Source: an uncultured Elusimicrobia bacterium
GTDB lineage: Bacteria; Elusimicrobiota; Elusimicrobia; 2-01-FULL-59-12
Direction of reading: 5' to 3'
DNA length: 64,000 bases
Assembly: GCA_963702895.1 (NCBI GenBank)
Contig: OY969767.1
Coordinates: 2,464,001 to 2,528,000, forward strand
Shown in pieces: positions 1 to 61,182 of this stretch. The first letter of the stretch is position 1. Every line of letters begins with the position of its first letter. The notes beneath the pieces were generated by a model. That model ran no database searches, was not told the origin of the DNA, and worked only from the letters and a program-made list of their open reading frames with translations. Made by a program: the position numbers and the translations under genes.

Positions 1-3000
1 CGACACACTGCGCCATAACTACCAGGAACAAGCTGAAGGTCTGATCGACGGGGGCGTGGACATCCTCCTGATCGAAACCTGCCAGGATATCCTACAGGCC
101 AAAGCCGCCACGGTGGGCGTTCTGGACGCTCTTTCCCGCAAGAAGAAGGACCTCCCGATCATGGTGCAGGTCACCGTGGAGTCCACGGGGACTTTGCTCT
201 TGGGGACCGAAATGGCGGCGGTCATCTCCGCTTTGGAGCCCTATCCCATCGCTTCCCTCGGCATGAACTGTGCGACGGGCCCCCAGGAGATGTCGGAACA
301 CGTGCGGATCCTGTCCCAGCAGTGGGCCCGGCCTATTTCTGTTCTTCCCAACGCGGGTTTACCCGAAAACGTGGGCGGACGAGCAGTCTATCGGCTCACT
401 CCTCAGGAGCTGGCCGAGCATCTGAAAGATTTCGTCACCCGGTTCGGGATCAATATCGTAGGCGGCTGCTGTGGGACCACGCCCGCGCATCTGGCTGAAG
501 TCGTGAAAGTCATGGAGAAGATCAAGCCTGTTCCGAGAAGCCTCTCAAGCACCCCGGCTTGTTCAAGCCTCTACCTTCAAGTGCCCTTCAAGCAGGAGCC
601 GAGGCCTCTTATCATCGGTGAACGCACGAATGCCAACGGCTCCAAGAAATTTCGTGAGCTGCTCGCCAAGGATGACTTTGATGCGATCGCCGCCATGGGA
701 AAAGAAGAGGTGAACGAGGGCGCTCACATGATCGACCTCTGCACAGCTTTTGTGGGCCGGGACGAGGTCCGTGACATGAAGGAATGTGTGAGCCGCATGG
801 CGCTCCAGGTGCGCCTGCCGCTCATGATTGACTCCACCGAGGCCCCCGTGATTGAAGAAGCTCTTAAACGTGCGGGCGGACGCTGTGTCATCAATTCCAT
901 CAACCTGGAAGATGGCGAAGAAAGAATGAAGGCGGTCTGCCCTCTGGCCAAGACTTATGGCGCAGCCCTGGTGGCGCTCACAATCGACGAGCAAGGCATG
1001 GCCAAAACCCGGCAAAAGAAGCTCGCCATCGCCAAGCGCATTCACGATCTGGCCATCAAGCGCTTCGGTCTGCGACCGGAAGATTTGCTGTTCGACGCTT
1101 TGACGTTTACGCTCGGTTCGGGTGACGAGGATTTTCGCAAGGCAGGTCTCGAGACCATCGAGGCCATCCGCCTGATCAAAAAGGAGCTCCCCGGAGTCTT
1201 CACCGTACTGGGCGTTTCCAATATCTCGTTTGGTCTGGCACCCCAGATCCGCCAGGTGTTGAACTCGGTGTTTCTCCATTACGCCATTGAAGCCGGTCTC
1301 GACGCTGCCATTGTCCACGCACGCAAGATCCTGCCCCTCTACAAAATCGATGAGAAAGGACGGGAGCTCGCTCGTAAATTGATTTTTGATGATCGCACAC
1401 CCCTCTCGTCATCCCCCGCGGGTGTCAGCGGGGGATCCATCATGATGGACCCCGGGTCTCCAAACAACAGGCGACCCGGCCCGCCGGACGTGTGGAGGGC
1501 CGGCTTACAATCCGCCGGGGTGACGGCTTCTTTTGATCCTCTGACCGCGCTCATGGCGCACTATGCCGAAACCTCAGAGATCTCTGCGAAAGCGAATAAG
1601 GAAGAACCCAAGACCATCGAAGAGCATCTCAAGGTCCGTATCATCGACGGGAATAAACAGGGCCTGGAGGGACTGCTCGATGAGGCGATGAAGAAGTGGG
1701 GTCCGCTCGAGATCATCAACACCATACTGCTTGACGGGATGCGGGTGGTGGGCGATTTGTTTGGTTCGGGCCAGATGCAGCTCCCCTTCGTTCTTCAGTC
1801 CGCGGAAACCATGAAAGTGGCGGTGCGTCATCTGGAGCCCTTCATGCCTAAGGCGGACGCTGGTGTTCATAAAGGGAAGCTCGTCCTTGCGACCGTCAAA
1901 GGGGACGTTCACGACATCGGGAAGAACCTCGTCGATATCATCCTCACGAACAACGGCTACAAGGTTTTCAATTTGGGCATCAAGATGTCGATCGATGAGA
2001 TCCTCAAGGCTGCCGCGGAAAAGAAGGCCGATGCGATCGGGATGTCAGGCTTGCTCGTCAAATCGACGGCGGTCATGAAGGAAAACTTAGAGGAGATGAA
2101 TAAACGAGGCGTGCAAACGCCGGTCCTTTTGGGTGGGGCGGCTCTCACGCGCCGATTTGTGGAAGAAGATCTCCGGCAGCTCTACAAGGGCTATGTCTAT
2201 TATGGGGTGGACGCTTTTGCGGGGCTTCGCATCATGGACGAGCTGACCAACCCTTCCAGAGAAAAGAAGTTGACCCTCTATGAGACGCGTGGCGGTTCGG
2301 GCCAAACCTTGAAAGCGGGAGACTTGCCCTCACCCCACCCCTCTCCCGCCTTCGGCGGGAGAGGGCGGTCGCCAGACGCCTGGCGACCGGGTGAGGGCAC
2401 GCTCTATATCCCTCTATCCCCCTCTCCTTCTATTCCTCATCCGCCGTTCTGGGGCAGCCGGGTCGCGCGAGGAATCGCTTTAAAGGATGTCTTCCCCTAT
2501 ATCAACGAAACGGCCCTCCTCAAAGTGCGCTGGGGCTTTTCCAGGGGGCAAACAAGCGCCGAAGATTACGCGCAACTCCTTAAGGAAACCGTTGGGCCGC
2601 TCTTTCAGAAGTGGAAAAACTACTGCCTTAAGGAGCAGATACTGGTCCCGCAAGTGGTTTACGGTTATTTCCCTTGCCTGTCTGAAGGAGATGATGTGGT
2701 GGTGTATAGGCCGGAAGATTTGAAAAAGGAATGGGTGCGCTTTAAATTCCCGCGACAAAACACGACTCCGATGCGATGTATCAGTGACTTCTTTCTCCAA
2801 AAGCCGTCATCCCGGCATGCTGTAAGCCGGGATCCATCAGACGTGATGGATCCCCCGCTAAAGTCCGCGGGGGATGACAGAAAGAATTTTGACGTATTAG
2901 GTTGCTTTGTCGTGACGGTCGGAACCCAGGCAAGCAACAAAGCGCATGCCCTCTTCAAGGAGAACTCCTACAGCGATTATCTCTACCTGCACGGGCTAAG

Positions 3001-3301
3001 CGTGGAAACGGCCGAAGCCTTAGCCGAGCACTGGCACCGCCGCATGCGTGAGGAGCTGAACATCCACCAGGAAGATCACCCGGAGGTGCGTGAATGGTTT
3101 CACCAGAAGTACCATGGCGGTCGCTACTCTTTTGGGTATCCCGCCTGCCCCAACCTGGAAGATCAAGCAAAGCTTTTTGAACTGCTGGATCCCCAACGCA
3201 TTGGCGTAGCGCTCTCCGAAGCGTTTCAGTTAGACCCTGAGCAAAGCACCTCCGCCATCGTCCTGCACCACCCCGAAGCCAAATACTTTAACGTCCAGTA
3301 A
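1..3301 (+). CDS. metH: Cobalamin-dependent methionine synthase (5'-truncated by window edge), with three in-frame palindromic insertions
   Basis: GGCCGT Zn motif, IGERTNANGSKKF pterin domain, GDVHDIGKN B12-binding motif, RYSFGYPACP activation domain; the frame is open from the window start. Confidence 0.97.
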   Translation, partial: DTLRHNYQEQAEGLIDGGVDILLIETCQDILQAKAATVGVLDALSRKKKDLPIMVQVTVESTGTLLLGTEMAAVISALEPYPIASLGMNCATGPQEMSEHVRILSQQWARPISVLPNAGLPENVGGRAVYRLTPQELAEHLKDFVTRFGINIVGGCCGTTPAHLAEVVKVMEKIKPVPRSLSSTPACSSLYLQVPFKQEPRPLIIGERTNANGSKKFRELLAKDDFDAIAAMGKEEVNEGAHMIDLCTAFVGRDEVRDMKECVSRMALQVRLPLMIDSTEAPVIEEALKRAGGRCVINSINLEDGEERMKAVCPLAKTYGAALVALTIDEQGMAKTRQKKLAIAKRIHDLAIKRFGLRPEDLLFDALTFTLGSGDEDFRKAGLETIEAIRLIKKELPGVFTVLGVSNISFGLAPQIRQVLNSVFLHYAIEAGLDAAIVHARKILPLYKIDEKGRELARKLIFDDRTPLSSSPAGVSGGSIMMDPGSPNNRRPGPPDVWRAGLQSAGVTASFDPLTALMAHYAETSEISAKANKEEPKTIEEHLKVRIIDGNKQGLEGLLDEAMKKWGPLEIINTILLDGMRVVGDLFGSGQMQLPFVLQSAETMKVAVRHLEPFMPKADAGVHKGKLVLATVKGDVHDIGKNLVDIILTNNGYKVFNLGIKMSIDEILKAAAEKKADAIGMSGLLVKSTAVMKENLEEMNKRGVQTPVLLGGAALTRRFVEEDLRQLYKGYVYYGVDAFAGLRIMDELTNPSREKKLTLYETRGGSGQTLKAGDLPSPHPSPAFGGRGRSPDAWRPGEGTLYIPLSPSPSIPHPPFWGSRVARGIALKDVFPYINETALLKVRWGFSRGQTSAEDYAQLLKETVGPLFQKWKNYCLKEQILVPQVVYGYFPCLSEGDDVVVYRPEDLKKEWVRFKFPRQNTTPMRCISDFFLQKPSSRHAVSRDPSDVMDPPLKSAGDDRKNFDVLGCFVVTVGTQASNKAHALFKENSYSDYLYLHGLSVETAEALAEHWHRRMREELNIHQEDHPEVREWFHQKYHGGRYSFGYPACPNLEDQAKLFELLDPQRIGVALSEAFQLDPEQSTSAIVLHHPEAKYFNVQ
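1407..1525. repeat. GTCA...TGAC double-hairpin REP-like element in frame in metH, containing two nested 20-nt hairpin units
   Basis: cgtcatcccccgc..gcgggggatccat..atggaccccgg..gccggggtgacg; same architecture as 2806-2878 and 23416-23486. Confidence 0.85.
2325..2399. repeat. CCCTCACCC...GGGTGAGGG palindromic element (75 nt) in frame in metH linker
   Basis: tgccctcaccc..ccctctcccgccttcggcgggagaggg..gggtgagggca; sister copy at 13282-13349. Confidence 0.85.
2806..2878. repeat. GTCA...TGAC double-hairpin REP-like element in frame in metH activation domain
   Basis: gtcatcccggc..gccgggatccat..atggatcccccgc..gcgggggatgac. Confidence 0.85.
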
Positions 3302-3304
3302 CGT

Positions 3305-3337
3305 CGTCATCCCGGCTTACGTCCTGCCGGGGTGACG
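3305..3337. repeat. Single-hairpin version of the GTCA...TGAC element between convergent genes; possible terminator role
   Basis: cgtcatcccggc-ttacgtcct-gccggggtgacg. Confidence 0.7.
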
Positions 3338-13869: not shown

Positions 13870-14717
13870 TGCGTTTCTTGGGTATTTATCGTGAGCCAGA
13901 GTTTTCTCCTGGCCGACACCTGTCCAATGACGCCAAAATCCTGCGCTTGGTCGCACAGGCCTTAGCGTGCCAGGACATCTCGGTGCGCCTGGCCACGCTG
14001 GAAGAGGCTCGAGGCGAGTGGCAGGACGCGGACCTCATTTTCTCCATGTGTCAGGGGCCACAAGCTCTCCACGAGCTCACGCGGTGGAAGAGGCAGGGCG
14101 CTTGGATCCTCAATGACCCCGAAGCCTCTCGCCGGACCTATCGCGACAGCCTCTGTTCAGCCCTGCGCGAAGAGGATCTGAGATTTCCGCACAGCGAATT
14201 TATTTCCACGAGCGCCCACCTCCGGGACCTGGAAAGTTTTCAGCCCTGGTTCTTGAACGAAGGCGCCTGGCTTAAACGCGCGGATGTCCACGCGACCACC
14301 CCGTCCGACGTGGTGAAACTCGAACGGTGGTCAGACTTGAACTCGGTACTCGGAAGATTTCGCGCGCGCGGCCTCGAGAAAGCGGTTTTGCAGCATCATT
14401 GCCCGGGCGATGAAGTGAAGTTCTATGCCGTCAAAGGGGATCGCCTGTTTTGGCCTTACTACCCTAAAGAATCCGAAGGGCACCCTTTTGATGAAAAAGC
14501 GCTCAAAGCCCTCGCGGAGCATGCGGCCAAAACGTTGGATCTCGCCATTTATGGCGGAGACGCGATTATTTCCCCGGAAGGCAGGATCACTCTGATCGAT
14601 TTAAACGACTGGCCATCTTTCGCCCCCTGCCGGGGTGCCGCGGCCAGCGCCATCGCCAAATTCTTAAAGGATGCCTATCGTGCCCGCCAAAACAAAAGAG
14701 AAACAGCCAAAGTCTAA
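13866..14717 (+). CDS. ATP-grasp-fold protein
   Basis: WLKRAD, QHHCPGDEVKFY, IYGGDAII..IDLNDWPSF motifs. Confidence 0.72.
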   Translation: MMRFLGIYREPEFSPGRHLSNDAKILRLVAQALACQDISVRLATLEEARGEWQDADLIFSMCQGPQALHELTRWKRQGAWILNDPEASRRTYRDSLCSALREEDLRFPHSEFISTSAHLRDLESFQPWFLNEGAWLKRADVHATTPSDVVKLERWSDLNSVLGRFRARGLEKAVLQHHCPGDEVKFYAVKGDRLFWPYYPKESEGHPFDEKALKALAEHAAKTLDLAIYGGDAIISPEGRITLIDLNDWPSFAPCRGAAASAIAKFLKDAYRARQNKRETAKV

Positions 14718-16152
14718 GTTCGTCCGACGTACGACGTCCGACGCCCGCACATCTCACCCGAAACGGCCTCTGCGGGTCGCCCCTGGCCCCGAAGGACTTC
14801 AGGACGTCGGACCTCGGACGTCGGACGCCCTCACAGGCTGGCCCGGCCCAAAATCCGTCGCCCTCTTCGAAGAGGAGCAAGCTTTCCTCTCCCCAGGCAA
14901 TCAGTCGATCGCGCTCCTCTCGAAATTAACGATCGAGCGTGGCAGCGGCTGTCGCCTCACGGATGCTGACGGCAACTCCTATCTCGACTTGAATGGAGGT
15001 GTTTCGAGCGCAAGCCTTGGCCACTGCCATCCAAAGTTCGTTCAGGCGATGACGGACCAGCTCTCCAAAGTGACCCTGGGCAGTTATACCAGCCGTTCCC
15101 GTCTGGCTTTGGTCAAGTTGCTCGCGAAGATTGCCCCCAAAGGCCTGCGGCGGACTCAGTTTTTTTCCAGCGGCGCCGAAGCCGTCGAGGCCGCTTTTCG
15201 GCTCGCGAAGTCGATCACGAAGAAAAACCAGATCTTTGGGTTCTGGGGTGGCTATCATGGCAAAACACAAGGGACCCTGCCGCTTTCTCTGGTTGATTGG
15301 AAGTTCGAGCTCGGCCCCTTGATGGCCGGCTACCAACAGACGCCTTATGCGGACTGCTACCGTTGCCCCTTCCGTGCGCGCTATCCGGAATGTGGTCTGG
15401 CCTGCGCTGAATATTTCCGTGATCAGATCCGTGCGACCGCCAGAGGCGACGTCGCCGCCGTTATCGCCGAGCCTGTTCAGGGCACGGCGGGCAATATCGT
15501 TCCTCCCGATGGATTCATTCGAGCGGTATGCGAAATCGCCAAAGAGGAAGGTGCTGTCTTTATCTCGGACGAAATGATTACGGGCTTTGGCCGCACCGGT
15601 CACATGTTCGGCGTGGACCACGACAACGTCTTGCCGGACGTGATGAGCGTGGGCAAAGGCATGGGCAACGGTTTCCCCGTATCGGGCGTCATCACCACGG
15701 ACGCGCATGCCCAGGCCAGGCCCTGGTCGCTCCCCAGCGCATCCTCTTCGAGCTACGGGGGCAATCCTTTCGCGAGCGAAGCGGTGCGCGTCACGACGCA
15801 AACGATCCTCGAAGAGGACCTCGTGAACAACAGCGCCCGCGTGGGACGCGTGCTCTTGGATGGCATTCGAAAGCTCCAAGGCCACTATCCTTTTATCGGG
15901 GACGTGCGCGGGCGTGGGCTGCTGATCGGCATGGACCTGGTCAAAGACCGCAAGACAAAGGAGTTCCTGCCTGCGGTCCTTTGCGAGAAGTTCTTTTTTG
16001 AATGTTTAAAGCGCGGTCTCCTCATGATGAGTTACACGCCGCGCGTCCGCATTCATCCGCCCTTGGTCCTGAGCGAATCCGAAGCCCAGGAAGCTCTCGC
16101 CAAAATGGATGAAGCGTTGGCGACCCTTGTCTCCGACTTCGAGAAGCTATGA
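14671..16152 (+). CDS. Class III PLP aminotransferase (GabT-like) with N-terminal in-frame repeat insertion
   Basis: SGAEAVE, YHGKT, EPVQG, DEMITGFGRTG, VGKGMGNG motifs. Confidence 0.9.
   Translation: MPIVPAKTKEKQPKSKFVRRTTSDARTSHPKRPLRVAPGPEGLQDVGPRTSDALTGWPGPKSVALFEEEQAFLSPGNQSIALLSKLTIERGSGCRLTDADGNSYLDLNGGVSSASLGHCHPKFVQAMTDQLSKVTLGSYTSRSRLALVKLLAKIAPKGLRRTQFFSSGAEAVEAAFRLAKSITKKNQIFGFWGGYHGKTQGTLPLSLVDWKFELGPLMAGYQQTPYADCYRCPFRARYPECGLACAEYFRDQIRATARGDVAAVIAEPVQGTAGNIVPPDGFIRAVCEIAKEEGAVFISDEMITGFGRTGHMFGVDHDNVLPDVMSVGKGMGNGFPVSGVITTDAHAQARPWSLPSASSSSYGGNPFASEAVRVTTQTILEEDLVNNSARVGRVLLDGIRKLQGHYPFIGDVRGRGLLIGMDLVKDRKTKEFLPAVLCEKFFFECLKRGLLMMSYTPRVRIHPPLVLSESEAQEALAKMDEALATLVSDFEKL
14721..14827. 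repeat. 107-nt MITE-like element with inverted (GTCCGAC)n arms, copy 1
   Basis: cgtccgacgtacgacgtccgacg...ggacgtcggacctcggacgtcggacg; colinear with 27436-27542. Confidence 0.85.
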
Positions 16153-18302: not shown

Positions 18303-18346
18303 GGGGAGATTCTACGGCATCCGTCAAATTTAATAAACGGCAAACT

Positions 18347-18416
18347 TCGTAAATCGTGAATCGTAAATAGTTTGTGGGGACGGCCTCGTAAACCATTCAC
18401 TATTCACCATTCACGA
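18347..18416. repeat. Inverted heptamer-array element
   Basis: (tcgtRaa)x3 on the left and (Yattcac)x3 on the right are complementary. Confidence 0.7.
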
Positions 18417-18509
18417 TGTATGCCGTTCCCACAGCAGAAACCCCTTTCCGCAGCCCGTATACTTCAGACTGGGGAAAGGGGCTCTGGGTGTGACGTGGTA
18501 TGGAATGGA

Positions 18510-26767: not shown

Positions 26768-28102
26768 ATGAACAGCACCGCCACTTTTGGAGACAGCGTC
26801 ATCGCGGAAGCCGAAAAGCTCCGCGCTTCGGGTCTTGACGTCAACCAGATCGCGGGTGCCCTGTGCAAAAAGGACCCTTTGGGCCAGAACTATGGCATTG
26901 GCATTCTTCTCGGCCGCGACGGCAAGCCGTTGCCGAGTTCCCTCACGCTTCTCGAATACATCGAAAAAGAGCTGCGCGAAAGCGGCGCCGGCAACTATTT
27001 GAATTCGGCCGCTCTCCAGAATGAAGTGCTGGAGGCCGTGCTCCAGTGGCAGGGCGTGCCCGAAGCGCACTGGCCGCACTTCCAGATTCTTTTGCCTTCC
27101 GATGCCGGGACCGGCGCGGTCCAAACGGGAATTCAAGCGGCGTTGCTCGTGAGCGACAAGATCTCCACCTTGGCCATCGAAGAGCTGGGATGGCCCGCTT
27201 ACAAGGCGATCGCCGCCTCGCTGCGCCTGCGCGTCCAGGAATACAAGACGGATGGCATCGCTCAGGGCGAAGGGATCCTCCCCCTCTATCAGGCCGGACC
27301 CATGAACACGACGGGCCGCGTGCCGTCGCTGGAGATCGTCAAGGCGCGCGCCGCCTCGGCCCAATCAGCCGGCGTTCCGGTGGTGCTCGACCGCGCCTAT
27401 TCAGGGTTTGAGTACGCCCGCCGGATGCTAACAGACGTCCGACGTGCGACGTCCGACGCCTGGACAGATCACCCTCAGCAATCAGTGCCAGTAGGCTCTG
27501 CTTCCGAAGGGTGTGGGGACGTCGGACGTAGGACCTCGGACGGCCTCTACGCTGAAATTATGAAGGAGAGTTTCCGCACGCAAATTCTGCCGTTCATGGA
27601 AGCGGGGGTCCCTTTCGCAGCCGCGATCAGCCCGACCAAAGCTTTCGTGACCTTCTCGCTGCGCCCTTGCGGGATCCTGCTCATCTTCCACCCCGACAAG
27701 GCCAAGGCGCAAGCGCTCTCCCCCAAGCTCTCAGGTCTCATCCGCGCGCGCGGGTCTTCCTTTGAACACCCCGTCACACGCGCCTTCGTGAAAGCCCTCG
27801 TCAAGGACCGCGCGCGCCTGGAACATGAACATGTCGGAGCGCTCCAGCGCTGCGCCGAAGCCGAACTCGCCTGGCAAACTCATGTGAAGGGAACTGCAAT
27901 CGAGCCCTTGTTCACCGATGCCTACGCGGGTCTTTTCCGTAATCCTCTGGCGCGCCCGGACGCGGCGAAGGAACTCTATGGCGCGCACCTCTATCCCGTC
28001 TTCGCCGAAGGCCGGTGCCGTCTCAATGTCACCGGGTTGCCTGCGGATCCCAAACAGGCCTCTTCTCATGCAACCTATTTCGCGAAGTATTGTTATCTTT
28101 AG
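26768..28102 (+). CDS. PLP-dependent aminotransferase class I/II-like, with in-frame 107-nt insertion
   Basis: AGTGA, DRAYSGF, SPTKAF (putative PLP lysine). Confidence 0.72.
   Translation: MNSTATFGDSVIAEAEKLRASGLDVNQIAGALCKKDPLGQNYGIGILLGRDGKPLPSSLTLLEYIEKELRESGAGNYLNSAALQNEVLEAVLQWQGVPEAHWPHFQILLPSDAGTGAVQTGIQAALLVSDKISTLAIEELGWPAYKAIAASLRLRVQEYKTDGIAQGEGILPLYQAGPMNTTGRVPSLEIVKARAASAQSAGVPVVLDRAYSGFEYARRMLTDVRRATSDAWTDHPQQSVPVGSASEGCGDVGRRTSDGLYAEIMKESFRTQILPFMEAGVPFAAAISPTKAFVTFSLRPCGILLIFHPDKAKAQALSPKLSGLIRARGSSFEHPVTRAFVKALVKDRARLEHEHVGALQRCAEAELAWQTHVKGTAIEPLFTDAYAGLFRNPLARPDAAKELYGAHLYPVFAEGRCRLNVTGLPADPKQASSHATYFAKYCYL
27436..27542. repeat. 107-nt MITE-like element with inverted (GTCCGAC)n arms, copy 2
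   Basis: Same length, arms and internal tcaccc/ccgaagg landmarks as 14721-14827. Confidence 0.85.
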
Positions 28103-38095: not shown

Positions 38096-38126
38096 ACACC
38101 TGGAGGGAGGGTCCTCACAAACGCAA

Positions 38127-38250
38127 GTATCGGGGTAAGGGGGTATCGGGGTAACAGAGTATCGGAGTAACGGGGTAACGGGGTAACGGGGTAACGGGGT
38201 AACGGTGGATCCGCTTTGACTTGACTCCGGTGCGCCGATACTCCGTTACG
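38127..38250. repeat. Octamer tandem array (about 10 x GTAWCGGG-like) with a short inverted arm
   Basis: Units at 38127-38205; complementary ccgatact-ccgttac at 38235-38249. Confidence 0.85.
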
Positions 38251-38260
38251 CGAATAGCTA

Positions 38261-39477: not shown

Positions 39478-39505
39478 GCCCCCCGCCACTTCCGTGGCGG
39501 GGGGC
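39478..39505 (-). terminator. 12-bp stem hairpin, probable terminator; its core fits the 20-nt unit consensus
   Basis: gccccccgccac-ttcc-gtggcggggggc downstream of the 39542 stop. Confidence 0.55.
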
Positions 39506-43031: not shown

Positions 43032-44234
43032 ATGGACCTTGAACTCAAGAATGTCACCCAGCGCCTCGTGAACGTTTGTTTTGCGCTTTTTCTCCTGTGC
43101 GGCGCCTCCGCCGTCGCGTCCGCAAGGGAAAATTACACAGGAAACCATACCCCGGGCCAATACGTTCCCCTTGATCCAACTTTCGCGGGTGCCTACCTAG
43201 GTCAATTAAACGAACAGCTTCAGCAGGGCCTTATCTCGTACGAGGAATATGAGCAGGCCATGACGCAAGCCAGTAAAGGCGCTCGGCCTTCAGAGAGGCG
43301 CCAGCGGCCCCCGCGTGCCCCTCAAGGCAACTCTCTAAATACTCCTTCTACACCTGCTACGCCCCGACCTTCTGGGTCCAATACTTGCGACAACATCACA
43401 GGCTGTGGAGCGTGTTTTTTGACCGCGAACAACAGCTGGGATAATAGCCGGTGCGTCCCTGGAGATCCCAGCGTATTCCTTGGTTGTGACTTTAAGGCCT
43501 GTGGGGCGGTCTCGGACGGGTACGCCTGTGGCACGAGCCAACCCGGCCCTTCAGGCTATGACTGGCCCTGCAAATCGGGATCGGTTTGTGCGGGCCCGAG
43601 TCCGGGCGGCAATTTCACGGGCGTCTGCCGCCCGGCAAGCGAGGCGGGACAGCTCGCGGGAACTGCTTTCATGTCAGGGTTTGATACAGCCAAACTGAAC
43701 AATCCAGCCCACAAAACACCGAAATATATCTTTGCTCGCACCGTCTTGGAACTCGGCCTGAGCGCCTCCGCCTCGCGGGACCATCTCCAGCCGCTGGTTG
43801 ACGTGCTTCGCCAACGGGGGTTGCCCAACGCGAAAGTCGCTGGCGATGACAAAATTGATTTTGGCAAGGGCGTCGGCGTGGTCGATGTGATCACCCGCGA
43901 TGGCGTTTGGTGGTGGGGGCCCGAGTCGAGCCTCGAAAACGATTCCGCCGCGGCGGTCTCTGCGTCTTCGCCTTTCATGGAAGGCTTCGATACAGCCAAA
44001 CTGAACAATCCGGCCCACAAGACCACGAAATATATCTTCGGTCGCACCGTTCAGGAACTTGGCGTGAGCGGTTCCTCCTCGCGGGACCATCTCCAGCCGC
44101 TGGTTGACGCGCTTCGCCAAAAGGGTTTAACCGACGCGAAAGTCGTGGGCGATGACAAGATTGATTTTGGCGCTGGCGTCGGCGTGGTTGATGTGATCAC
44201 CAGTAAGGGCACCTGGTGGTGGGGAACGCCGTAA
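43032..44234 (+). CDS. Exported Cys-rich protein with a duplicated C-terminal ~84-aa domain
   Basis: Signal peptide-like N-terminus, Cys-rich mid region, two GFDTAKL..KYIF.R..DDKIDFG..DVI..WWWG repeats. Confidence 0.78.
   Translation: MDLELKNVTQRLVNVCFALFLLCGASAVASARENYTGNHTPGQYVPLDPTFAGAYLGQLNEQLQQGLISYEEYEQAMTQASKGARPSERRQRPPRAPQGNSLNTPSTPATPRPSGSNTCDNITGCGACFLTANNSWDNSRCVPGDPSVFLGCDFKACGAVSDGYACGTSQPGPSGYDWPCKSGSVCAGPSPGGNFTGVCRPASEAGQLAGTAFMSGFDTAKLNNPAHKTPKYIFARTVLELGLSASASRDHLQPLVDVLRQRGLPNAKVAGDDKIDFGKGVGVVDVITRDGVWWWGPESSLENDSAAAVSASSPFMEGFDTAKLNNPAHKTTKYIFGRTVQELGVSGSSSRDHLQPLVDALRQKGLTDAKVVGDDKIDFGAGVGVVDVITSKGTWWWGTP
43666..44223 (+). repeat. Intragenic direct repeat, two ~252-nt copies at 306-nt period
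   Basis: 43666-43918 versus 43972-44223. Confidence 0.9.
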
Positions 44235-49160: not shown

Positions 49161-49393
49161 CGCCCCTGATGATAACAAACACCCAGGCGCGGGATCCCAC
49201 GGGGTGGCTAGCCCGAATTGTTCGGTTGCCCAGGATCTCCCTTTCCCGCGGAACGTGGGAGAAGGGACTCAAAAGTGCAGCCGGCTTAGACGGACAGAGC
49301 CGCTTTGCTGAAGATTTTGGGTTAATTAGTTAGGACCGTCCCTGATCCCCAGGCTCTCGCCCGACTGTTGTGTGTCGGGCGAACCCATCTCGC

Positions 49394-52573: not shown

Positions 52574-52768
52574 TGGAGGGAGAGGTCCGCCGCACTCCCG
52601 GCGGATCCGCCGGACGTCTGGCGGAGATTCGTCCGCCACTGAGTCGCTGGCGGACCCGCCTACGTCTTAGTGGCGGGGAACCTTCGGTACGCCCTCCACT
52701 CACCTGGCGGGCGTCCGCCTGTAGTGTGGCGGACGGTTTCCCGCACAATGCTTTTCAAGAGCATCGCC
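52574..52768 (-). pseudogene. tRNA-Ser(TGA) 3' fragment interrupted by six hairpin units at three sites
   Basis: Removing the inserts gives ATGCT-CTTGAAA-AGCAT-TGTGCGGGAAACCGTAC-C-GAAGG-TTCGAAT-CCCTC-TCCCTCC-A. Confidence 0.85.
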
Positions 52769-52793
52769 TCGTGGCGCTTGTGTAGGTCGTGAG

Positions 52794-52852
52794 CGGAGGG
52801 AGAGGGATTCGAACCCCCGGTACAGTTTCCTGTACACCTGTTTTCAAGACAG
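52794..52852 (-). tRNA. tRNA-Ser(TGA) 3' portion only (att site of adjacent element)
   Basis: CTGT-CTTGAAA-ACAGG, long variable arm, GGGGG-TTCGAAT-CCCTC, TCCCTCCG; D-arm and 5' acceptor strand absent. Confidence 0.85.
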
Positions 52853-52957
52853 CTCACCCTCTGTTTCGACGGTTGCTTGATTCAGTTTGATTTATGGAAG
52901 AGAAACGCTGATTGGATTCGTCCCATTTCCATCTCCATTTACAGCCCGATTTACAAC

Positions 52958-54013
52958 TTATGCGATTACGGGTGGCTTTGGCAAGGTCAAAACCCCTTCG
53001 ATGTTGTGAATTTCATCGGTCAGGTCCTTCCTATCCAAGTGCCCGTAATGTTGCTCCGTGACGACCGAAGTGGAATGCCCCAATATCTTTGAAACCTTAT
53101 ATATCGGGGTACCCCCGCTCAGCATCCGTTGCGCGAATGTGTGACGCAGACAATGGAAAGTGAAATCCATCACTTGCGCATCCTTACAACAGTCCTTAAA
53201 CCATTCGCTAACTGTAGTGCAGTGAACGGCATCCAGCAAACGCGTCTCTGGATCTCGGCCAATGGCACGCTGAGACACGACTTCCGCCACTTCTCGCGTG
53301 AGTGGCACATGACGACTGCGCTGAGTCTTCGAATTCGGAACGAAGATGTAGGGCTCCGGGTAAGGGATGAAATCTCTGACCCTTGTCGCCCATATTTCCC
53401 CGATCCGCATTCCGGTATGAATCGCGATGACGTAGTAAGGCCAGAGCCGTGTATGCTTTGCCACGATCGGCGTTAGCCTTTTTTCCTCATCAGGTGATAG
53501 ATACCGGACTCGCGCTTTCGGAACTTTGGCCATCGGGACACCCCAAGCGGGATTGTCTCCGAAATACATCCGGCGTTTCTTGACCCAATTGATAATCGCC
53601 TTTAATCCGGCGTGATACCGGTTCACGCTGTTCAGCGAAATGTGGGGGCTCGAAATGCCGGGGATTGTCTTTTCGACAAACCTACGGAAACCCTCCACAT
53701 CTTTTGGGCCTATGTCTCGTATGCGCCGATTGCCGAAGTAACGCTTTATCCCCTTGATGTATGCCCTATCTCCCTTCCAAGTCCTCTTAAAGGGCCGGGC
53801 GTATTCATCAAAGAACTCGTCACAGGCATCACTCAACTTCAAGTTATCGTTGCCCAATTGGCCTGTCGCCATGCGCTTGAGCATTTCTGACTTCTTGTGT
53901 GTCTCCGCTTTTGCGGCATTACCGCGCGTCTTGTAGCCTTGCTTCCATTTCGTCTGTTTGCCGACTTGGAAGCGGTAACACCATTCTCCGCTTGGCAGTT
54001 GTCTGACCGACAT
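52958..54013 (-). CDS. Tyrosine recombinase/integrase
   Basis: TGMRIGE, K, HCLRH, LGH, HY catalytic set. Confidence 0.94.
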   Translation of the reverse strand: MSVRQLPSGEWCYRFQVGKQTKWKQGYKTRGNAAKAETHKKSEMLKRMATGQLGNDNLKLSDACDEFFDEYARPFKRTWKGDRAYIKGIKRYFGNRRIRDIGPKDVEGFRRFVEKTIPGISSPHISLNSVNRYHAGLKAIINWVKKRRMYFGDNPAWGVPMAKVPKARVRYLSPDEEKRLTPIVAKHTRLWPYYVIAIHTGMRIGEIWATRVRDFIPYPEPYIFVPNSKTQRSRHVPLTREVAEVVSQRAIGRDPETRLLDAVHCTTVSEWFKDCCKDAQVMDFTFHCLRHTFAQRMLSGGTPIYKVSKILGHSTSVVTEQHYGHLDRKDLTDEIHNIEGVLTLPKPPVIA

Positions 54014-54051
54014 TTAAGCCTCCTGTCGGCCAAACCTACCGCACGGGTACA

Positions 54052-54261
54052 TTATAGATCCCATTTGAGATTGTGTGGGTTGTTGGCCGCGAGCCATTTC
54101 TCAATATCAATTCGACGAAAAATGACCCTTCTACCGACATGAATGAACGGAATTCGCGCATTACTGGTCATTTTTCGGATCGTTGACTTCTTAATCCGAA
54201 GCAATTCAGCCAACTCCGTAACGTTCAAGAAATCTCGCGGACTCTCAATCGGTGTCGTCAT
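54052..54261 (-). CDS. Excisionase-like HTH protein
   Basis: FLNVTELAELL..KSTI..IPF..GRRV.F. Confidence 0.85.
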   Translation of the reverse strand: MTTPIESPRDFLNVTELAELLRIKKSTIRKMTSNARIPFIHVGRRVIFRRIDIEKWLAANNPHNLKWDL

Positions 54262-54297
54262 AAGATTATTTTTCAAAAACAAACCCAATCGAAGCCC

Positions 54298-54963
54298 TTA
54301 TTCATCGCTTGGCTCCGAGCCGTGTGTCTCATCCGCAGAATCAGGAGACCGAGCATACTCCGGCCCTTTTCTTCTGGCCTGTAACCGTTCCAGTTCATGG
54401 ATGCACCTGAGGAGCTTCCGTTCGATGCTCGTTTCATACTGGGATAGCAGTTGAAGGCTCTCCTGCACTGTCTGGAATGAAAGACCGGGCACAACATCTG
54501 CTCCCCCAGTCATTCGGCTGAGGCGGTCGATCTGTTTCTGAGCACGCGCCTTTCCCTCTGGGTCAAGAATCTGCTCGAATGGCTCACATAATTTATCCTC
54601 CATGGGGTTCACTATTGCGACATATCGCTTCGCTTTTTCCCGTGCCTCTACCAGCCATTGCGTCAAAAGGCCTCTCATCAAAAGTCCATGTTCCGCATTT
54701 TCTGACCGTCGGAGCCTCCACATCAAACTCGCGACTCTATCAGTCATGAATTGTTCCATGGAACCCTCCGGCTTGTATAAATGATGGACCCCTTCGCTCA
54801 GTTGTTCACATTCTTGGGGATCTTCGTTCGGCAGGACTGCACGTTCCGATGTAAGGCCGTGCTTCAAGGCATTCCTCGCGATAATTGCTTTGCCCGCCAG
54901 ACTTTTTACACCTCCTGCTTTCGCATTGATCCGATTGGCTTGATTTTGCTTTTCAGTGGCCAT
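54298..54963 (-). CDS. Hypothetical protein (ANRxNA / NALKHGL type)
   Basis: MATEKQNQANRINA, NALKHGL, WRLRR, YETSIER motifs. Confidence 0.72.
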   Translation of the reverse strand: MATEKQNQANRINAKAGGVKSLAGKAIIARNALKHGLTSERAVLPNEDPQECEQLSEGVHHLYKPEGSMEQFMTDRVASLMWRLRRSENAEHGLLMRGLLTQWLVEAREKAKRYVAIVNPMEDKLCEPFEQILDPEGKARAQKQIDRLSRMTGGADVVPGLSFQTVQESLQLLSQYETSIERKLLRCIHELERLQARRKGPEYARSPDSADETHGSEPSDE

Positions 54964-57445
54964 ACTGACCCCCCCTTTGGACTTCAAATAGTGAAGGCTG
55001 TGAACTTGGTGAACCATTTTCGACGTGCTCAGGATTAGGGATGTCCGTTTCTCGGGGTCCATTAAGTACAACATCGGGCTGGCCGAGGTTCACAGGGTTC
55101 ACAGGTTCACTGAGTGAAATGAGTTTCCACTGCTTTGCCCGTTGCTTTGATCCGGCCAGTAGCACACGGAATTCATCGAATTGCCGGTCACGGAGTTTCA
55201 TGAGTTCTTGACCCATCTTGGTTCGACGGCTTTTCTCCTGACCCAGTCCAAGGTTTATGGGTTCTTCCAACTTCTCGTTCAGATCAAAGAGTTCCGCCAC
55301 CCCTACCTCAGCGTCGCCATGGACTTCCCACCACCTCTGTATAAATCCCCGTAAGATGTTGCCTTCCTCATCAGATGCGCCGTAGAAGTCGTTGAGATTG
55401 CCAAGGAATCCGGGCACACCGGCAACCGATAGGACTCCACCCATGGTCTTTGACCAAGATTCGAACATTCCCAGACTTACACCCTTGAAAGGAGGCCTTC
55501 CTTGAGCGATCCACCCCTGAATGATGGTCAGAGCGGCCCAGATAATCTGCGGACGCTTTTCTCTTGCCCAGCACATAAGGTCTGGATGTCGAAATCTGTC
55601 GCGCAACCATGGGCGGTCAGCTTTGGCATCCATTCTTATTCTGATCGAGCGGCGGGACATTTCGTTGGATAAAGCTGGATTATTTCCATTGGCAACCCAA
55701 GCGCATCTCACTGGCAAGGAGATGACTTTTGAGAACCCTAGAATCCGATCCTCCCAACAAGGCGAAGTGATGGCTGACGCGAGTGCGGACGAGTCCAGCC
55801 GTCTTCTGATGTTGTCGATGAGCAGGATGTCGGGTCTTTCCATGAGTTTTGACGTGAGTCTTTTTCGCCATTCGTCAGAATCCCTCCCCTCACTCATAGT
55901 CGATACGGGCCGACCCAGAGAAGCAAACGCCACAGCGTTGATCAGAAGCGTTTTCCCAGTTCCGGGCGATGGGGCTTCTACGAGGTGAAGCGGTGTCGCT
56001 CCATTAATCAGATCCCTCGCAAATGGAAGCAACAAAAGCGCAAACGCATGGGCACGCTCCGCCTCTCCTGTAAACGGGAACTCCCCGATCAGTTCATCTA
56101 GGATCAGGCCGCGAGCTCCTTGCAGTTCGTCATGGCTCGGTACTGCGGCGACCTCAGGAATCTCTCTGGGATCAGAATGAAAAAGGTATGTCTGGCTTGC
56201 TGGGTGGTAGCCAGATGATGTTTGCAATAGCCCTTCCGGAGAAAATACCGGAGCTTCCACGATGCGGGTCAATATTGGCAGGGGTAATTCGGGAGATGCC
56301 AGCATGTCTTTGACAACATGCATCGGAGGTAGCACGGGATAGACTTCTCCTTGGTAAACGCGATACCAATCCGCAGAGCGAGCCAAAACATGCCGCATCT
56401 TGTCCTGAACCAATTCCCTCAAACGCGGGTATCCCTTATCGTCTTTTTCGATTCGAACCGGCAGACCTCCTGAGCGGAACAGTGTGGGGGGCCGATTGAA
56501 TTGCTCAACCGCTTCCCATGCCAAAGGCGTAATTCTCTTGAGTTCAAAGTCTCCTGCATCGATGTGCGGAAGTGAATCAGCGCTCTTGCCGATCTCATGA
56601 GAGACTATAGGCAACATTAAGGCCTCTGCTGAATCTCGCGCCGCAGAAAAGCGGCTTGAGAACTCATTGGGATATTTAAGATGCAGGTCGCTGAGGTCCT
56701 TGGCATCACTCAGCTTGATTAGTTTGAGGATTCCATGCCATTCAAGGTTCTGCACACGGGAGGAAATCCCATCGGCAAATACCTCGCCGCCTCTATCGGG
56801 CTCTTGGATCACACAGAGTTCCTCGAACGCCCGGATATGTTCAGCGTTAAGCTTTTTGGCCATATCGGCACCCGGAAGTCCCAGCACGGGCAATTGATGA
56901 AACCAACCCGTTAAGACATCGGTCTCGCCTTCTACGAGCACCAGATACTTCTCAGATGCAAATTCTTGCAACCTCCACAGCCCGTATGGAACCGATGACC
57001 CTGACCCACTCGACCACCTACTCCCTTCCTTGGCAACTAAGGAAGTCCGAATCCTCTGGCGGGAGGCTTTACTGCCGTCCATCAATCGATAGGTTATTCT
57101 TGCGCCCTTGAATGGAATATCCTCCACGCCGTGTTGTCTAAGAAACTGCGAAGGCAGGTGCTTGTGCTGGGCAATCGCCTCTACAGTTACCAGCACCCGG
57201 TGCTTCGGTTCTGTGGTAGGGACTTGGGCAAAGAGCGTTTCTAACGGAAGTCTTAACGCTTTGCGAATGTTCTCAAAGGGGCACCCCGCAAAGCATTTGA
57301 AAAGGATTTTCCCATCGTTCCCAATCCCGACTGATAGGCTCTGTTGTCGGTCCTCGTGCGACGGACAAAGTGCAGTCCACTGGGATTCTCCGTTCTTTTT
57401 GACACCTTTGAGGCGAGACAACACAAGTTCGACACTCATTGCCAT
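54953..57445 (-). CDS. Primase-like replication protein (Zn-binding + Toprim + P-loop ATPase)
   Basis: CPSHED..CFAGC, VEGETD, EPDRGG, GTGKT Walker A, LLIDN. Confidence 0.85.
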   Translation of the reverse strand: MAMSVELVLSRLKGVKKNGESQWTALCPSHEDRQQSLSVGIGNDGKILFKCFAGCPFENIRKALRLPLETLFAQVPTTEPKHRVLVTVEAIAQHKHLPSQFLRQHGVEDIPFKGARITYRLMDGSKASRQRIRTSLVAKEGSRWSSGSGSSVPYGLWRLQEFASEKYLVLVEGETDVLTGWFHQLPVLGLPGADMAKKLNAEHIRAFEELCVIQEPDRGGEVFADGISSRVQNLEWHGILKLIKLSDAKDLSDLHLKYPNEFSSRFSAARDSAEALMLPIVSHEIGKSADSLPHIDAGDFELKRITPLAWEAVEQFNRPPTLFRSGGLPVRIEKDDKGYPRLRELVQDKMRHVLARSADWYRVYQGEVYPVLPPMHVVKDMLASPELPLPILTRIVEAPVFSPEGLLQTSSGYHPASQTYLFHSDPREIPEVAAVPSHDELQGARGLILDELIGEFPFTGEAERAHAFALLLLPFARDLINGATPLHLVEAPSPGTGKTLLINAVAFASLGRPVSTMSEGRDSDEWRKRLTSKLMERPDILLIDNIRRRLDSSALASAITSPCWEDRILGFSKVISLPVRCAWVANGNNPALSNEMSRRSIRIRMDAKADRPWLRDRFRHPDLMCWAREKRPQIIWAALTIIQGWIAQGRPPFKGVSLGMFESWSKTMGGVLSVAGVPGFLGNLNDFYGASDEEGNILRGFIQRWWEVHGDAEVGVAELFDLNEKLEEPINLGLGQEKSRRTKMGQELMKLRDRQFDEFRVLLAGSKQRAKQWKLISLSEPVNPVNLGQPDVVLNGPRETDIPNPEHVENGSPSSQPSLFEVQRGGQYGH

Positions 57446-57466
57446 ACCTCTTGAAGGTAATGTCGA

Positions 57467-57733
57467 TTATTTCGATGCCAAGGGGCTATTTCCATATCCA
57501 TCGCTCCTATGAATGAGATCTTTGATTCGTCTTTGTGAGTCAGAGAAATCGCGAATGTTGCCCACAAGGTCGCCGCGCAGGAAGGCCTCAATCAGACTTG
57601 CGGCTTGGTCAGATGACTTAAATTGGAAATGACATACGCCGCGATCCCGCAGAACGGTAATCAGCGGAATGCGAAACGCGAGAAGAAGCGCGGCTTCGTT
57701 AAAATCTTTCGTGGAGAAGGGTTGCATGTTCAT
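57467..57733 (-). CDS. DUF5659-like small protein
   Basis: FSTKDFNEAA.L..F.F pattern; directly upstream of the primase. Confidence 0.6.
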   Translation of the reverse strand: MNMQPFSTKDFNEAALLLAFRIPLITVLRDRGVCHFQFKSSDQAASLIEAFLRGDLVGNIRDFSDSQRRIKDLIHRSDGYGNSPLASK

Positions 57734-57782
57734 TCCATGTGATGCTTTGCATGGAATTATTATGCGGAATGCAAATTACCCG

Positions 57783-57802
57783 AAAGGGCGTATACGCCCT
57801 TT
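57783..57802. promoter_or_regulatory. Perfect 20-bp palindrome upstream of the replication module
   Basis: aaagggcgtatacgcccttt. Confidence 0.55.
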
Positions 57803-57823
57803 ATGCGATGGAAATTAGGTAAT

Positions 57824-58324
57824 TTATTTCTGGGATAGGATCTTGCGAATAGTGTTTCCGCTAAGGCAAGGGAATGACTCACCACTCTCGGCTGAAAGAT
57901 TCAGATTATGATCTTCGAGTCGATCCGTCAGGATGCGAGCGGCTTCACGTCTTGTTATTTTCGAGTTGTGTGTTTTCATCTCATCGAATTGGTTCCAGAG
58001 CCATTGATGTAGTGCTTTGGATCTTTGTCTTCTGCGAGGCTTCTGAGTTGCAGATCTGTATTTGGATTTGACTTGTCCGTGCACCTTCCTTAGCTGTCGA
58101 GTCGTTCTATCAAGCTTGCTATAGGGGAAGAACCGCTCCCCTTGTTTCTCCTTCGCTTCATAGGATCTCCACACCGATGCGACGTGCTTTTGCACTTCAC
58201 GCAAACTCCAAATCAAAGGAATCTTTAGAACAATTCGTTTCTGCTTCCCGGATGCTTCCTCATGTACAGAGAATGAAGTTGGGGGAAGTGGTCGATACGA
58301 TTCCTTTGATTTATCCATTTCCAT
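57824..58324 (-). CDS. Hypothetical basic protein, possible C-terminal HTH
   Basis: K/R-rich; TRREAARIL..SGNTIRKIL. Confidence 0.5.
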   Translation of the reverse strand: MEMDKSKESYRPLPPTSFSVHEEASGKQKRIVLKIPLIWSLREVQKHVASVWRSYEAKEKQGERFFPYSKLDRTTRQLRKVHGQVKSKYRSATQKPRRRQRSKALHQWLWNQFDEMKTHNSKITRREAARILTDRLEDHNLNLSAESGESFPCLSGNTIRKILSQK

Positions 58325-58355
58325 GTCAATACTTGCTAGACGAGCTAAGCCGGTG

Positions 58356-61166: not shown

Positions 61167-61182
61167 AAGTTTGCTCCCGCTC

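Follow-up and report, generated by a model that had tools for sequence, protein, structure and literature searches.

Tiny hairpin units in palindromic repeats and tRNA copies of an Elusimicrobia genome, and a candidate tRNA-linked nuclease

How tiny palindromic repeats arise and spread without a transposase is an open question. It is posed here by a small hairpin, called the unit, that occurs in the methionine synthase gene (metH) and elsewhere in a 64,000-nt stretch of DNA (the window) from an uncultured Elusimicrobia bacterium (contig OY969767.1, positions 2,464,001 to 2,528,000). Units are nested within larger palindromes, as a preliminary description of the window observed, and these host palindromes belong to known families. 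One is that of the CGTC-tagged repetitive extragenic palindromes (REPs), the same as dRS3, NTS, and SRM repeats (PMC3733652, PMC11893778), and it is this type that hosts the unit pair in metH. The dRS3 repeat itself has a 6+8+6 geometry and an oriented motif, and CGTC dimers are often heterodimers, like the unit pairs with their differing partners. In the Ssn system (PMC11893778), a gene for a single-domain GIY-YIG protein is flanked by repeats, as are two genes of the present genome, and the nuclease SsnA recognises a single strand of its hairpin, which it cuts a few bases on the 5' side. So far as the accessible parts of these papers go, the spread of CGTC repeats is left open in PMC3733652, a mobile origin is only hypothesised in PMC11893778, and neither mentions inserted accessory hairpins, tRNA copies, or the junction rule described below ("trna" has no match in PMC11893778).

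The other known host is the BoxC/PIT/TM triplex repeat (PMC4666352), with the same purine and pyrimidine blocks as the repeat around the metH unit at position 2368. Its published consensus has a 3-nt gap where a hairpin fills the slot here, and the E. coli copies are intergenic, to judge from the part of the paper at hand. REPINs and their RAYT (TnpA-REP) proteins (PMC3116915, PMC6006769) offer another likeness, at least in the portions available: their palindromes are short, have an orientation, and form inverted doublets able to fold into a single long hairpin, and strand-specific processing of single strands is the proposed engine, as it would be here. However, REPINs have long spacers, a GTAG-type foot, random extragenic sites, and a RAYT, whereas units are separated by 0-4 host-templated bases, lie inside stem-loops, and have no RAYT linked to them. 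The double-hairpin elements of fungal mitochondria (PMC10085805) are GC-rich, tiny, non-coding, probably mobile, and made of two adjacent hairpins, and they occur within structured RNA genes as well, but they are organellar and unrelated in sequence, and the accessible text mentions neither a mirror-like junction rule nor a tRNA-linked nuclease. RPE and intragenic REPs, described in the available part of PMC3733652 as palindromic repeats in frame within housekeeping genes, resemble the host repeats of metH and not the nested unit. In the way it works, the unit may be analogous to mitochondrial double-hairpin elements or to REP doublets. Full-text searches turned up the host families but nothing that describes the unit, plugged tRNA copies, or the junction rule; most subscription papers, supplements, and the figures of PMC3733652 lay outside their scope.

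I propose, with a probability that I put at about 0.48, that each end of a staggered break captures a hairpin, that fold-back synthesis extends the hairpins before the ends are joined, that the resulting plugs then spread by gene conversion, and that the cutter is a GIY-YIG nuclease encoded beside tRNA genes.

The unit and the rule its junctions follow

The genome (G000) consists of one contig of 2.72 Mb, with 57% G+C, and is 98% complete. Its gene for B12-dependent methionine synthase, metH, runs from 56 to 3301 (+) in the list of open reading frames, the open frame beginning upstream of the window. Three palindromic repeats lie in its linkers and are translated, flanked by Pfam domains at 1-152, 188-421, 522-594, 607-724, and 857-1080 of the protein. 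The first (1407..1525) is an in-frame dimer of CGTC-tagged halves of the NTS/SRM type, recognised by a CGTC or TGTC tag, then a stem starting with AT or AC, and a short tail; such halves number 571 in the genome. Inside it lies a 48-nt double-hairpin plug (1452..1503), made up of CCGG (1452-1455), unit u1 (1456..1475, +; clamp GT/AC, core CTCC-8-GGCG, profile score 19.4), the reverse complement of CCGG (1476-1479), unit u2 (1480..1499, -, opposite to u1; clamp CC/GG, profile score 23.1), and CCGG again (1500-1503). The preliminary description had placed all of these exactly, along with the CG-framed unit at 2368-2387, and had rightly seen the likeness of 1480-1499 to the reverse complement of 52692-52711. 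It was also correct that metH gains 48 nt with the frame open, as judged from the third repeat (2805..2879), an unplugged CGTC dimer that is missing from the aligned orthologues and serves as an internal empty control. The relatives whose metH was aligned against that of the window (rows L002-L008, L010, and L011) include the sister versions whose existence had been suggested: L002 and L003, from the same family, have host repeat 1 at the same codon without the 48-nt block. L004 has a variant of the repeat, also without the block, L005-L008 and L010 have no such repeat, and L011 has a short, unrelated-looking remnant.

Across the genome the unit has the profile consensus NN-C[GT]CC-A[CG]ACNNCN-GGCG-N'N', in which the two clamp bases are free and mutually complementary. 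More generally, a core of CGCC-loop-GGCG with 0 or 2 self-complementary clamp bases makes a hairpin of 16-20 nt, and because the loop is asymmetric, the unit has a direction. The length constraint expected from a genome-wide scan is present: compared with an order-5 Markov control sequence, the background for hairpin counts, hairpins of the form 6+L+6 that are flanked by a 4-nt repeat are most numerous at L=8 (219 vs 63), and other values of L give 57-135 vs 56-83. The clamped motif occurs 276 times (38 in the control). A profile built from 6+8+6 hairpins, with a working cut-off score of 11, gives 383 strand matches at score 15 (14 in the control) and 328 distinct places at score 13.5, and the copy number of the unit with an 8-nt loop is about 300. 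Beside it are sisters with loops of 9, 10, and 11 nt, also enriched (57, 55, and 112 vs 13, 7, and 7), while loop lengths outside 8-11 nt show no enrichment in this genome. The 6+8+6 form is a local state of a wider hairpin family and not the intrinsic geometry it was thought to be, given these longer loops and the loops of 2-3 and 5 nt in other genomes. In the window eight units are clear (at 1456, 1480, 2368, 49360, 52586, 52606, 52692, and 52714) and two more are weak. Of the eight counted before, the hairpin at 39482..39501 that was said to fit the consensus is doubtful; it scores 7.1 against the cut-off of 11 and forms the middle part of a perfect hairpin that extends further and has a loop of 4 nt.

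The unit could not be matched to a described family, in line with the earlier suspicion. It lacks the CGTC tag of the CGTC REPs, has a different stem and a conserved loop, and interrupts the SRM stem, its outer bases being free and its profile core CGCC/GGCG. Inverted doublets are over-represented, as in GTAG-type REPs and REPINs (90 of 111 adjacent pairs; the control has no adjacent pairs at all), but no foot tetranucleotide is found, the flanks varying with the host, nor a cognate RAYT, nor a random extragenic spread (143 of 168 clusters lie in four types of repeat or at tRNA loci). A direct duplication of fixed length, the mark of a transposon or a miniature inverted-repeat transposable element, is absent as well. 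Rfam gave 0 matches at gathering score for the window and four unit-bearing or neighbouring loci, and a viral source was rejected, two unit patterns having 0 matches in IMG/VR.

Adjacent pairs follow a rule. The 90 mentioned above are oriented +/-, and none is -/+. Pairs whose empty site is known have the form X-u1-revcomp(X)-u2-X, X being a stretch of 0-4 host bases of which the empty site has a single copy. The rule is exact in 89 of 110 pairs of G000, with X being CCGG (21), CG (20), CCG (16), GA (9), C (6), none (6), CC (5), CA (5), or CCCG (1); in 42 pairs it is one of the non-palindromic sequences C, GA, CC, CA, CCG, and CCCG. When each distinct junction type is counted once, 24 of 38 obey, compared to 1.2 (maximum 7 in 2000) with the spacers shuffled. 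The plug in metH is uninformative with regard to direct duplication, since CCGG is its own reverse complement. The target duplication once claimed there is indistinguishable from an extension of the stem, as it is at CG, and where sites are not palindromic the middle copy is inverted, an outcome that duplication by a transposon would not produce. Partners were identical in 0 of 74 pairs, and their loops agree at 5.0 of 8 positions, as against 5.2 +/- 0.1 when shuffled. With loops no closer than random, the origin of a pair by inverted duplication from one unit was rejected. The partners are two independent members of the unit pool.

The cleanest test of the rule comes from pairs within the T-loop of partial tRNA copies, because such a copy lies next to its parent gene, which has CG or CA at positions 56-57. 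The search pattern left the three junction positions unconstrained. All 13 T-loop plugs of a relative, G007, are concordant (7 CA/TG/CA and 6 CG/CG/CG), as are 22 of 24 in G000, where the two exceptions are mutated copies within one tandem array. Metagenomes yielded 74 concordant cases amongst 78 distinct matches; the remaining four, rich in G+C, lack a tRNA and have clamps that are not complementary. The dinucleotide of the parent tRNA agrees in 25 of the 25 metagenome plugs to which a parent could be assigned. A version with a 5-nt loop follows the pair rule as well, at four metagenome loci. Single units behave differently, replacing a whole arm at its branch point: in copies of Thr and Arg tRNAs, the 17-nt anticodon arm is exactly exchanged for a 20-nt unit.

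Finished plugs are copied between repeat copies. A 48-nt composite with the same clamps and odd stem mismatches as that in metH has 22 copies in the genome, on several repeat backbones and with 17 loop combinations. It is present also in G001 and G005, and the metH loop pair recurs at G000:C1:2692003; 184 unplugged arms of the same kind are found in G000. The metH units were therefore not local insertions, as had been supposed. The simplest reading is that a ready-made plug was copied in, the resident repeat having been converted by a plugged copy. The host repeat at this site is scattered across the MetH tree, its nearest carrier (L002) being unplugged, and is either old with subsequent losses or gained repeatedly.

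The second repeat of metH (2326..2398), also translated in frame, is of the BoxC/TM type and fits the pattern CCCTCNCCC-loop-GGGNGAGGG-gap-GGGNGAGGG, except that loop and gap are enlarged by hairpins. A single unit sits in its middle slot (2368..2387, +; score 21.8), framed by CG. In the genome, 7 of the 60 BoxC right halves carry a unit with an 8-nt loop, and in other copies different small hairpins fill the same CG..CG frame. At the same metH site, L005 has a BoxC repeat with another short hairpin in the slot, and a hairpin other than the unit is likewise recorded there for G001. Thus what looked like an insertion at 2368 is a slot exchange. In relatives the linkers of MetH have been recolonised by other repeats, with BoxC variants at site 2 in L003 (there with 11-nt-loop units) and L005, and at site 3 in L006. 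Just past the metH stop codon is a single unplugged CGTC half (3305..3337, +).

The frame is another matter in which the plug in metH misleads. Pairs of 36, 40, 42, 44, 47, and 48 nt are on record, and the existence of 40-, 44-, and 47-nt pairs is the reason for rejecting a built-in tendency to keep frame, which the 16 added codons had suggested. Pairs deep within rough gene calls number 3 of 18 (36 nt), 3 of 23 (48 nt), 0 of 8 (40 nt), and 0 of 29 (44 nt), the last count being confounded by the residence of that class in tRNA copies; within coding regions at that depth, no sizes but 36 and 48 nt were seen. Coding frame is preserved by selection, not by the design of the unit. What remains of the preliminary description is its central claim, that this is a real and very small hairpin family, spreading or templated, whose targets are stem-loops already in place and frequently CG or CCGG sites within them.

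Plugged tRNA copies and the nuclease genes beside them

The 289 units that were grouped fall into 168 clusters: 77 in CGTC-type repeats, 39 at tRNA loci, 14 in BoxC repeats, 10 in hairpins of heptamer repeats, 3 in a further small repeat, and 25 elsewhere. Those linked to tRNAs lie in partial copies adjoining intact genes. A unit is found within 400 nt of 27 of the 48 tRNA genes, compared to 8% of random sites, yet none is inside any called tRNA or tmRNA gene, and all 48 tRNA genes are intact. The units as introns of working tRNAs, whether for splicing or in the T-loop, were rejected, as the plugs at these loci lie in neighbouring copies.

The window contains one such copy, the duplicated 3' part of a tRNA-Ser (52574..52770, -), recognised by comparison with intact tRNA-Ser genes and not called as a tRNA. 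This stub holds three hairpin pairs: one of 8-nt-loop units in the variable arm, with X = CG (52692..52733, including the unit at 52692); one of 11-nt-loop sister units in the T-loop (52632..52677); and a spacerless one of 8-nt-loop units at the T-stem and acceptor end (52586..52625). The unit at 49360..49379 (-) lies behind a T-loop-like GGTTCG, and its second partner is unrecognisable.

The unit type with some 300 copies is concentrated in one family of Elusimicrobiota. A strict pair pattern matched 35 loci among GTDB representatives, and five Elusimicrobiota genomes account for 30 of these. Within the order, 12 genomes (several of them 73-90% complete) gave counts of 52, 23, 17, 15, 1, 1, and six zeros. 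The T-loop plug pattern matched 2 of 301 genomes in the phylum. A CGCC/GGCG stem with clamps and a loop of 2-3 nt replaces anticodon arms in nine genomes from five families, as judged by the 23 of 27 matches with complementary clamps; only these were used, since the pattern matched 13 of 401 genomes and the reversed control about 21. In such other genomes, hairpins with 2-3-nt loops flank GIY-YIG genes.

These genes are the candidates for the enzyme. G000 has eight small GIY-YIG genes in addition to UvrC. A tree of 32 GIY-YIG proteins from 12 genomes separates a clade flanked by CGTC repeats (beside 10 of 11 members, the Ssn arrangement; both sides of G000:C1:543339 and 554279) from two clades adjacent to tRNAs (7 of 8 and 3 of 3 members), with a further clade of 10 beside neither tRNAs nor units. 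Five of the eight members of the larger tRNA-adjacent clade are beside units. The tRNA-linked clade is set apart from the SRM-flanked one with support of 100/99 and 98/99, and there is no SRM beside 7 of its 8 first members. Its proteins consist of a single GIY-YIG domain of less than 150 aa, the PF01541 matches lying in frames of 77-108 aa. The predicted fold of the domain is nearest to those of UPF0213 and Slx1 (best E 1e-3, none lower), and three of the GIY-YIG proteins matched no NCBIfam family above cut-off.

The genes sit between a tRNA and a plugged copy of that tRNA. A tandem array at G000:C1:1813148-1813693 (-) reads tRNA-Asn, GIY-YIG, plugged copy, GIY-YIG, plugged copy, and the same layout is seen at a tRNA-Asn in G007 (L105). 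Another GIY-YIG gene, with an internal TGA (G000:C1:580611-580850), separates tRNA-Ile from tRNA-Ala in the rRNA spacer and has a plugged copy of tRNA-Ala after it. A small separate clade (G000:C1:205875-206090, L074, and L085) is only beside tRNA-Gln, with another palindromic repeat around it. In one relative (L086, G006:C5:66189-69389), 5' copies of tRNA-Leu surround a GIY-YIG gene and carry a different palindromic insert with a one-base duplication, and other hairpin types therefore play the same role in relatives.

Metagenomes point the same way. A GIY-YIG match was found at 16 of 80 plug loci, and 14 of the 14 genes placed in a tree (row L105 of which, a junk second match, was disregarded) fell within the larger tRNA-linked clade, 9 of them in a short subclade. 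That subclade is present in all four unit-rich genomes, while the remaining eight genomes of the order score at most 72 bits against its profile. One independent strong match turned up among 171 genomes, G323, found solely through this profile, and there a plugged copy of tRNA-Gly stands directly before the gene. The tRNA-linked single-domain clade, akin to Ssn, is thus a candidate for the cutter, on circumstantial evidence. A RAYT as driver was rejected, the only Y1 match being a 23-bit fragment with no units around it.

Other repeats and elements of the window and genome

Tandem 7- and 8-mer hairpins in inverted pairs are found in the window at 38126-38256, 14706-14842, 27436-27547, and 18343-18427 and represent additional repeat families of the genome; heptamer-type hairpins host 36-nt plugs elsewhere in the genome. 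Two 253-nt direct repeats, 85% alike, lie at 43666-44224 inside a 400-aa open reading frame with no Pfam match. A displaced 3' part of tRNA-Ser(TGA) (52793-52860, -) lies directly behind a tyrosine integrase gene (52958-54013), upstream of which, in the region 52958-63999, are an open reading frame with a DnaG-type zinc finger and genes for DUF499 and DUF1156 proteins. Together these make an integrative island of the defence type. Its opposite end is probably marked by the intact tRNA-Ser(TGA) at C1:2532323, beyond the window.

Outside the window, three plugged CGTC repeats (G000:C1:90238, 446672, and 505977) have their right loop cut by one shared foreign sequence, about 0.9 kb from genes for IS110-family transposases, and an IS110 element appears to target the CGTC repeat. 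Three near-identical genes for reverse transcriptases of 507 aa (G000:C1:230277, 463860, and 1962540) each stand closely before a CGTC or BoxC repeat; they have no flanking units and probably represent group II introns. The genome's one DUF559 nuclease gene (G000:C1:1904956-1905273) has BoxC arrays on both sides, a layout like that of the Ssn gene and its repeats. The inserts of RNase P are other repeats, no 8-nt-loop unit having been seen in that region.

How plugs might form

The proposal made at the outset would work as follows. A staggered cut within a stem-loop would leave X on both ends (some GIY-YIG enzymes leave 2-base 3' overhangs). Each end would be joined to a hairpin fragment freed from an existing copy, and since the released fragment would always be the same strand, the orientation of the pair is fixed. 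Each hairpin would then fold back and serve as primer for copying a few bases of the DNA it had been joined to, giving revcomp(X) and keeping the variable clamps complementary. Finally, the two ends would anneal via the overlap of revcomp(X) and be filled in. The capping, folding back, and annealing of both ends would account for the rule, the fixed orientation, and the independence of the partners. The cutter would be the tRNA-adjacent single-domain GIY-YIG clade, with the tRNA copy in the role that the repeat plays for Ssn; an SsnA-like cut of one strand 5' of a hairpin would release fragments of the proposed kind. Plugs disrupt the T-loop or the CGTC stem, next to bases that SsnA needs, and so, if the analogy holds, plugged copies should resist recutting, accumulate, and spread by conversion. 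A bolder form of the idea is that the gene-less hairpin of 16-20 bases propagates itself, cut from single-stranded DNA by the tRNA-anchored GIY-YIG enzyme, capping both ends of breaks in other stem-loops, producing the mirror-image junction, and immunising the site. I regard this as rather doubtful. The same reserve applies to what it would entail, mobility without transposase, integrase, or reverse transcriptase, and a second Ssn-like family in which a tRNA copy serves as the repeat.

A number of observations weigh against the proposal of capped and folded ends. The exact rule is broken by 21 of 110 pairs, many by one base, and three BoxC-type junctions and others deviate from it in kind. Some pairs with 11-nt loops duplicate one base without a central inverted copy, and one tRNA-Thr stub in G000 has CG where the neighbouring gene has CA. 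Most copies stem from a few ancestral plugs (22 from one, 16 from another), so that independent origins number about ten, not hundreds. No site polymorphic for empty and plugged forms was seen in four sequencing runs, which gave scattered short pieces, none across the plug (six runs shared 5-7% of words, with no RNA run among those listed). As for the enzyme, the match between the short subclade and the unit-rich genomes is circular, the profile having been trained on those four genomes; in G323 just 1 strict pair is present, and 1 pair occurs in G338 although that genome has no gene of the subclade. The nuclease and the plugs may be neighbours merely because both gather at tRNA copies. Nor does a nuclease ligate, and the joining must fall to a putative host repair.

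One might dispense with a dedicated enzyme and with the capping of ends by supposing that a few ancestral plugs arose through template switching during replication of hairpins and were then spread by gene conversion, the mirror rule being kept because each strand gains one correctly oriented hairpin with a longer stem. Composite plugs do shift between repeat backbones and exchange loops, four of four CA-type T-loop plugs in G000 have identical clamps, and conversion is required by the proposal of captured hairpins too. Even so, I judge this unlikely. Template switching predicts that u2 is the reverse complement of u1, yet 0 of 74 partners are identical and their loops look random. At least six non-palindromic classes of X in unrelated hosts follow the rule, as does CT/AG in L070, the CA-type plugs at seven sites in G007 (six of which were assigned to different tRNAs) vary in their clamps, and tRNA copies that are dead would have to be under near-absolute selection for two stem pairs. 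A site-specific recombinase or HUH enzyme (a RAYT, an IS110-type protein, or a tRNA-targeting integrase) that swaps hairpin tips at a short core X seems more improbable still. The exact swaps of arms do resemble recombination between stems, the genome has 13 IS110-family genes, three of them beside truncated plugged repeats, and an integrase lies beside the tRNA-Ser fragment of the window. However, X is of 0-4 bases and not a fixed core, the foot of the unit has neither a GTAG nor a CGTC tag, the sole Y1 match is the weak fragment already mentioned, and flanking units are seen at GIY-YIG genes but at no recombinase gene.

The fixed, strand-asymmetric loop consensus and the lineage-wide change in loop length suggest co-evolution with a protein, and each pair gives one plug per strand. 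The units could then be selected tags for binding by a host protein or for structure, placed where stem-loops tolerate them, with mobility incidental. That is very improbable, considering that most units lie in repeats or in defunct tRNA copies, that 8 of the 12 genomes in the order have none or next to none, and that the peptide translated from those in metH is not conserved. Hardest to credit is a 20-nt mini-transposon inserting singly with a direct target duplication at CG or CCGG, in spite of the direct repeats around units at palindromic sites and of two related singles (C1:1609152 and 1959334) with a non-palindromic 4-nt direct repeat. Empty forms of those two did not turn up, singles with a known empty site replace sequence, the length of the duplication varies, and wherever X is non-palindromic the central copy is inverted.

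If hairpins are captured on broken ends as proposed, the question of how such repeats spread becomes accessible. The signature of the junction can be read directly, because each tRNA copy stands beside its intact parent, and a candidate enzyme of 75-90 aa can be named together with defined oligonucleotide substrates, which makes the question testable. That enzyme would probably represent a new specificity class of single-strand nucleases. The unit family accounts for odd in-frame peptides and mis-called tRNAs in this lineage, and it points to an undescribed patching of cut DNA, rather than to ordinary transposition.

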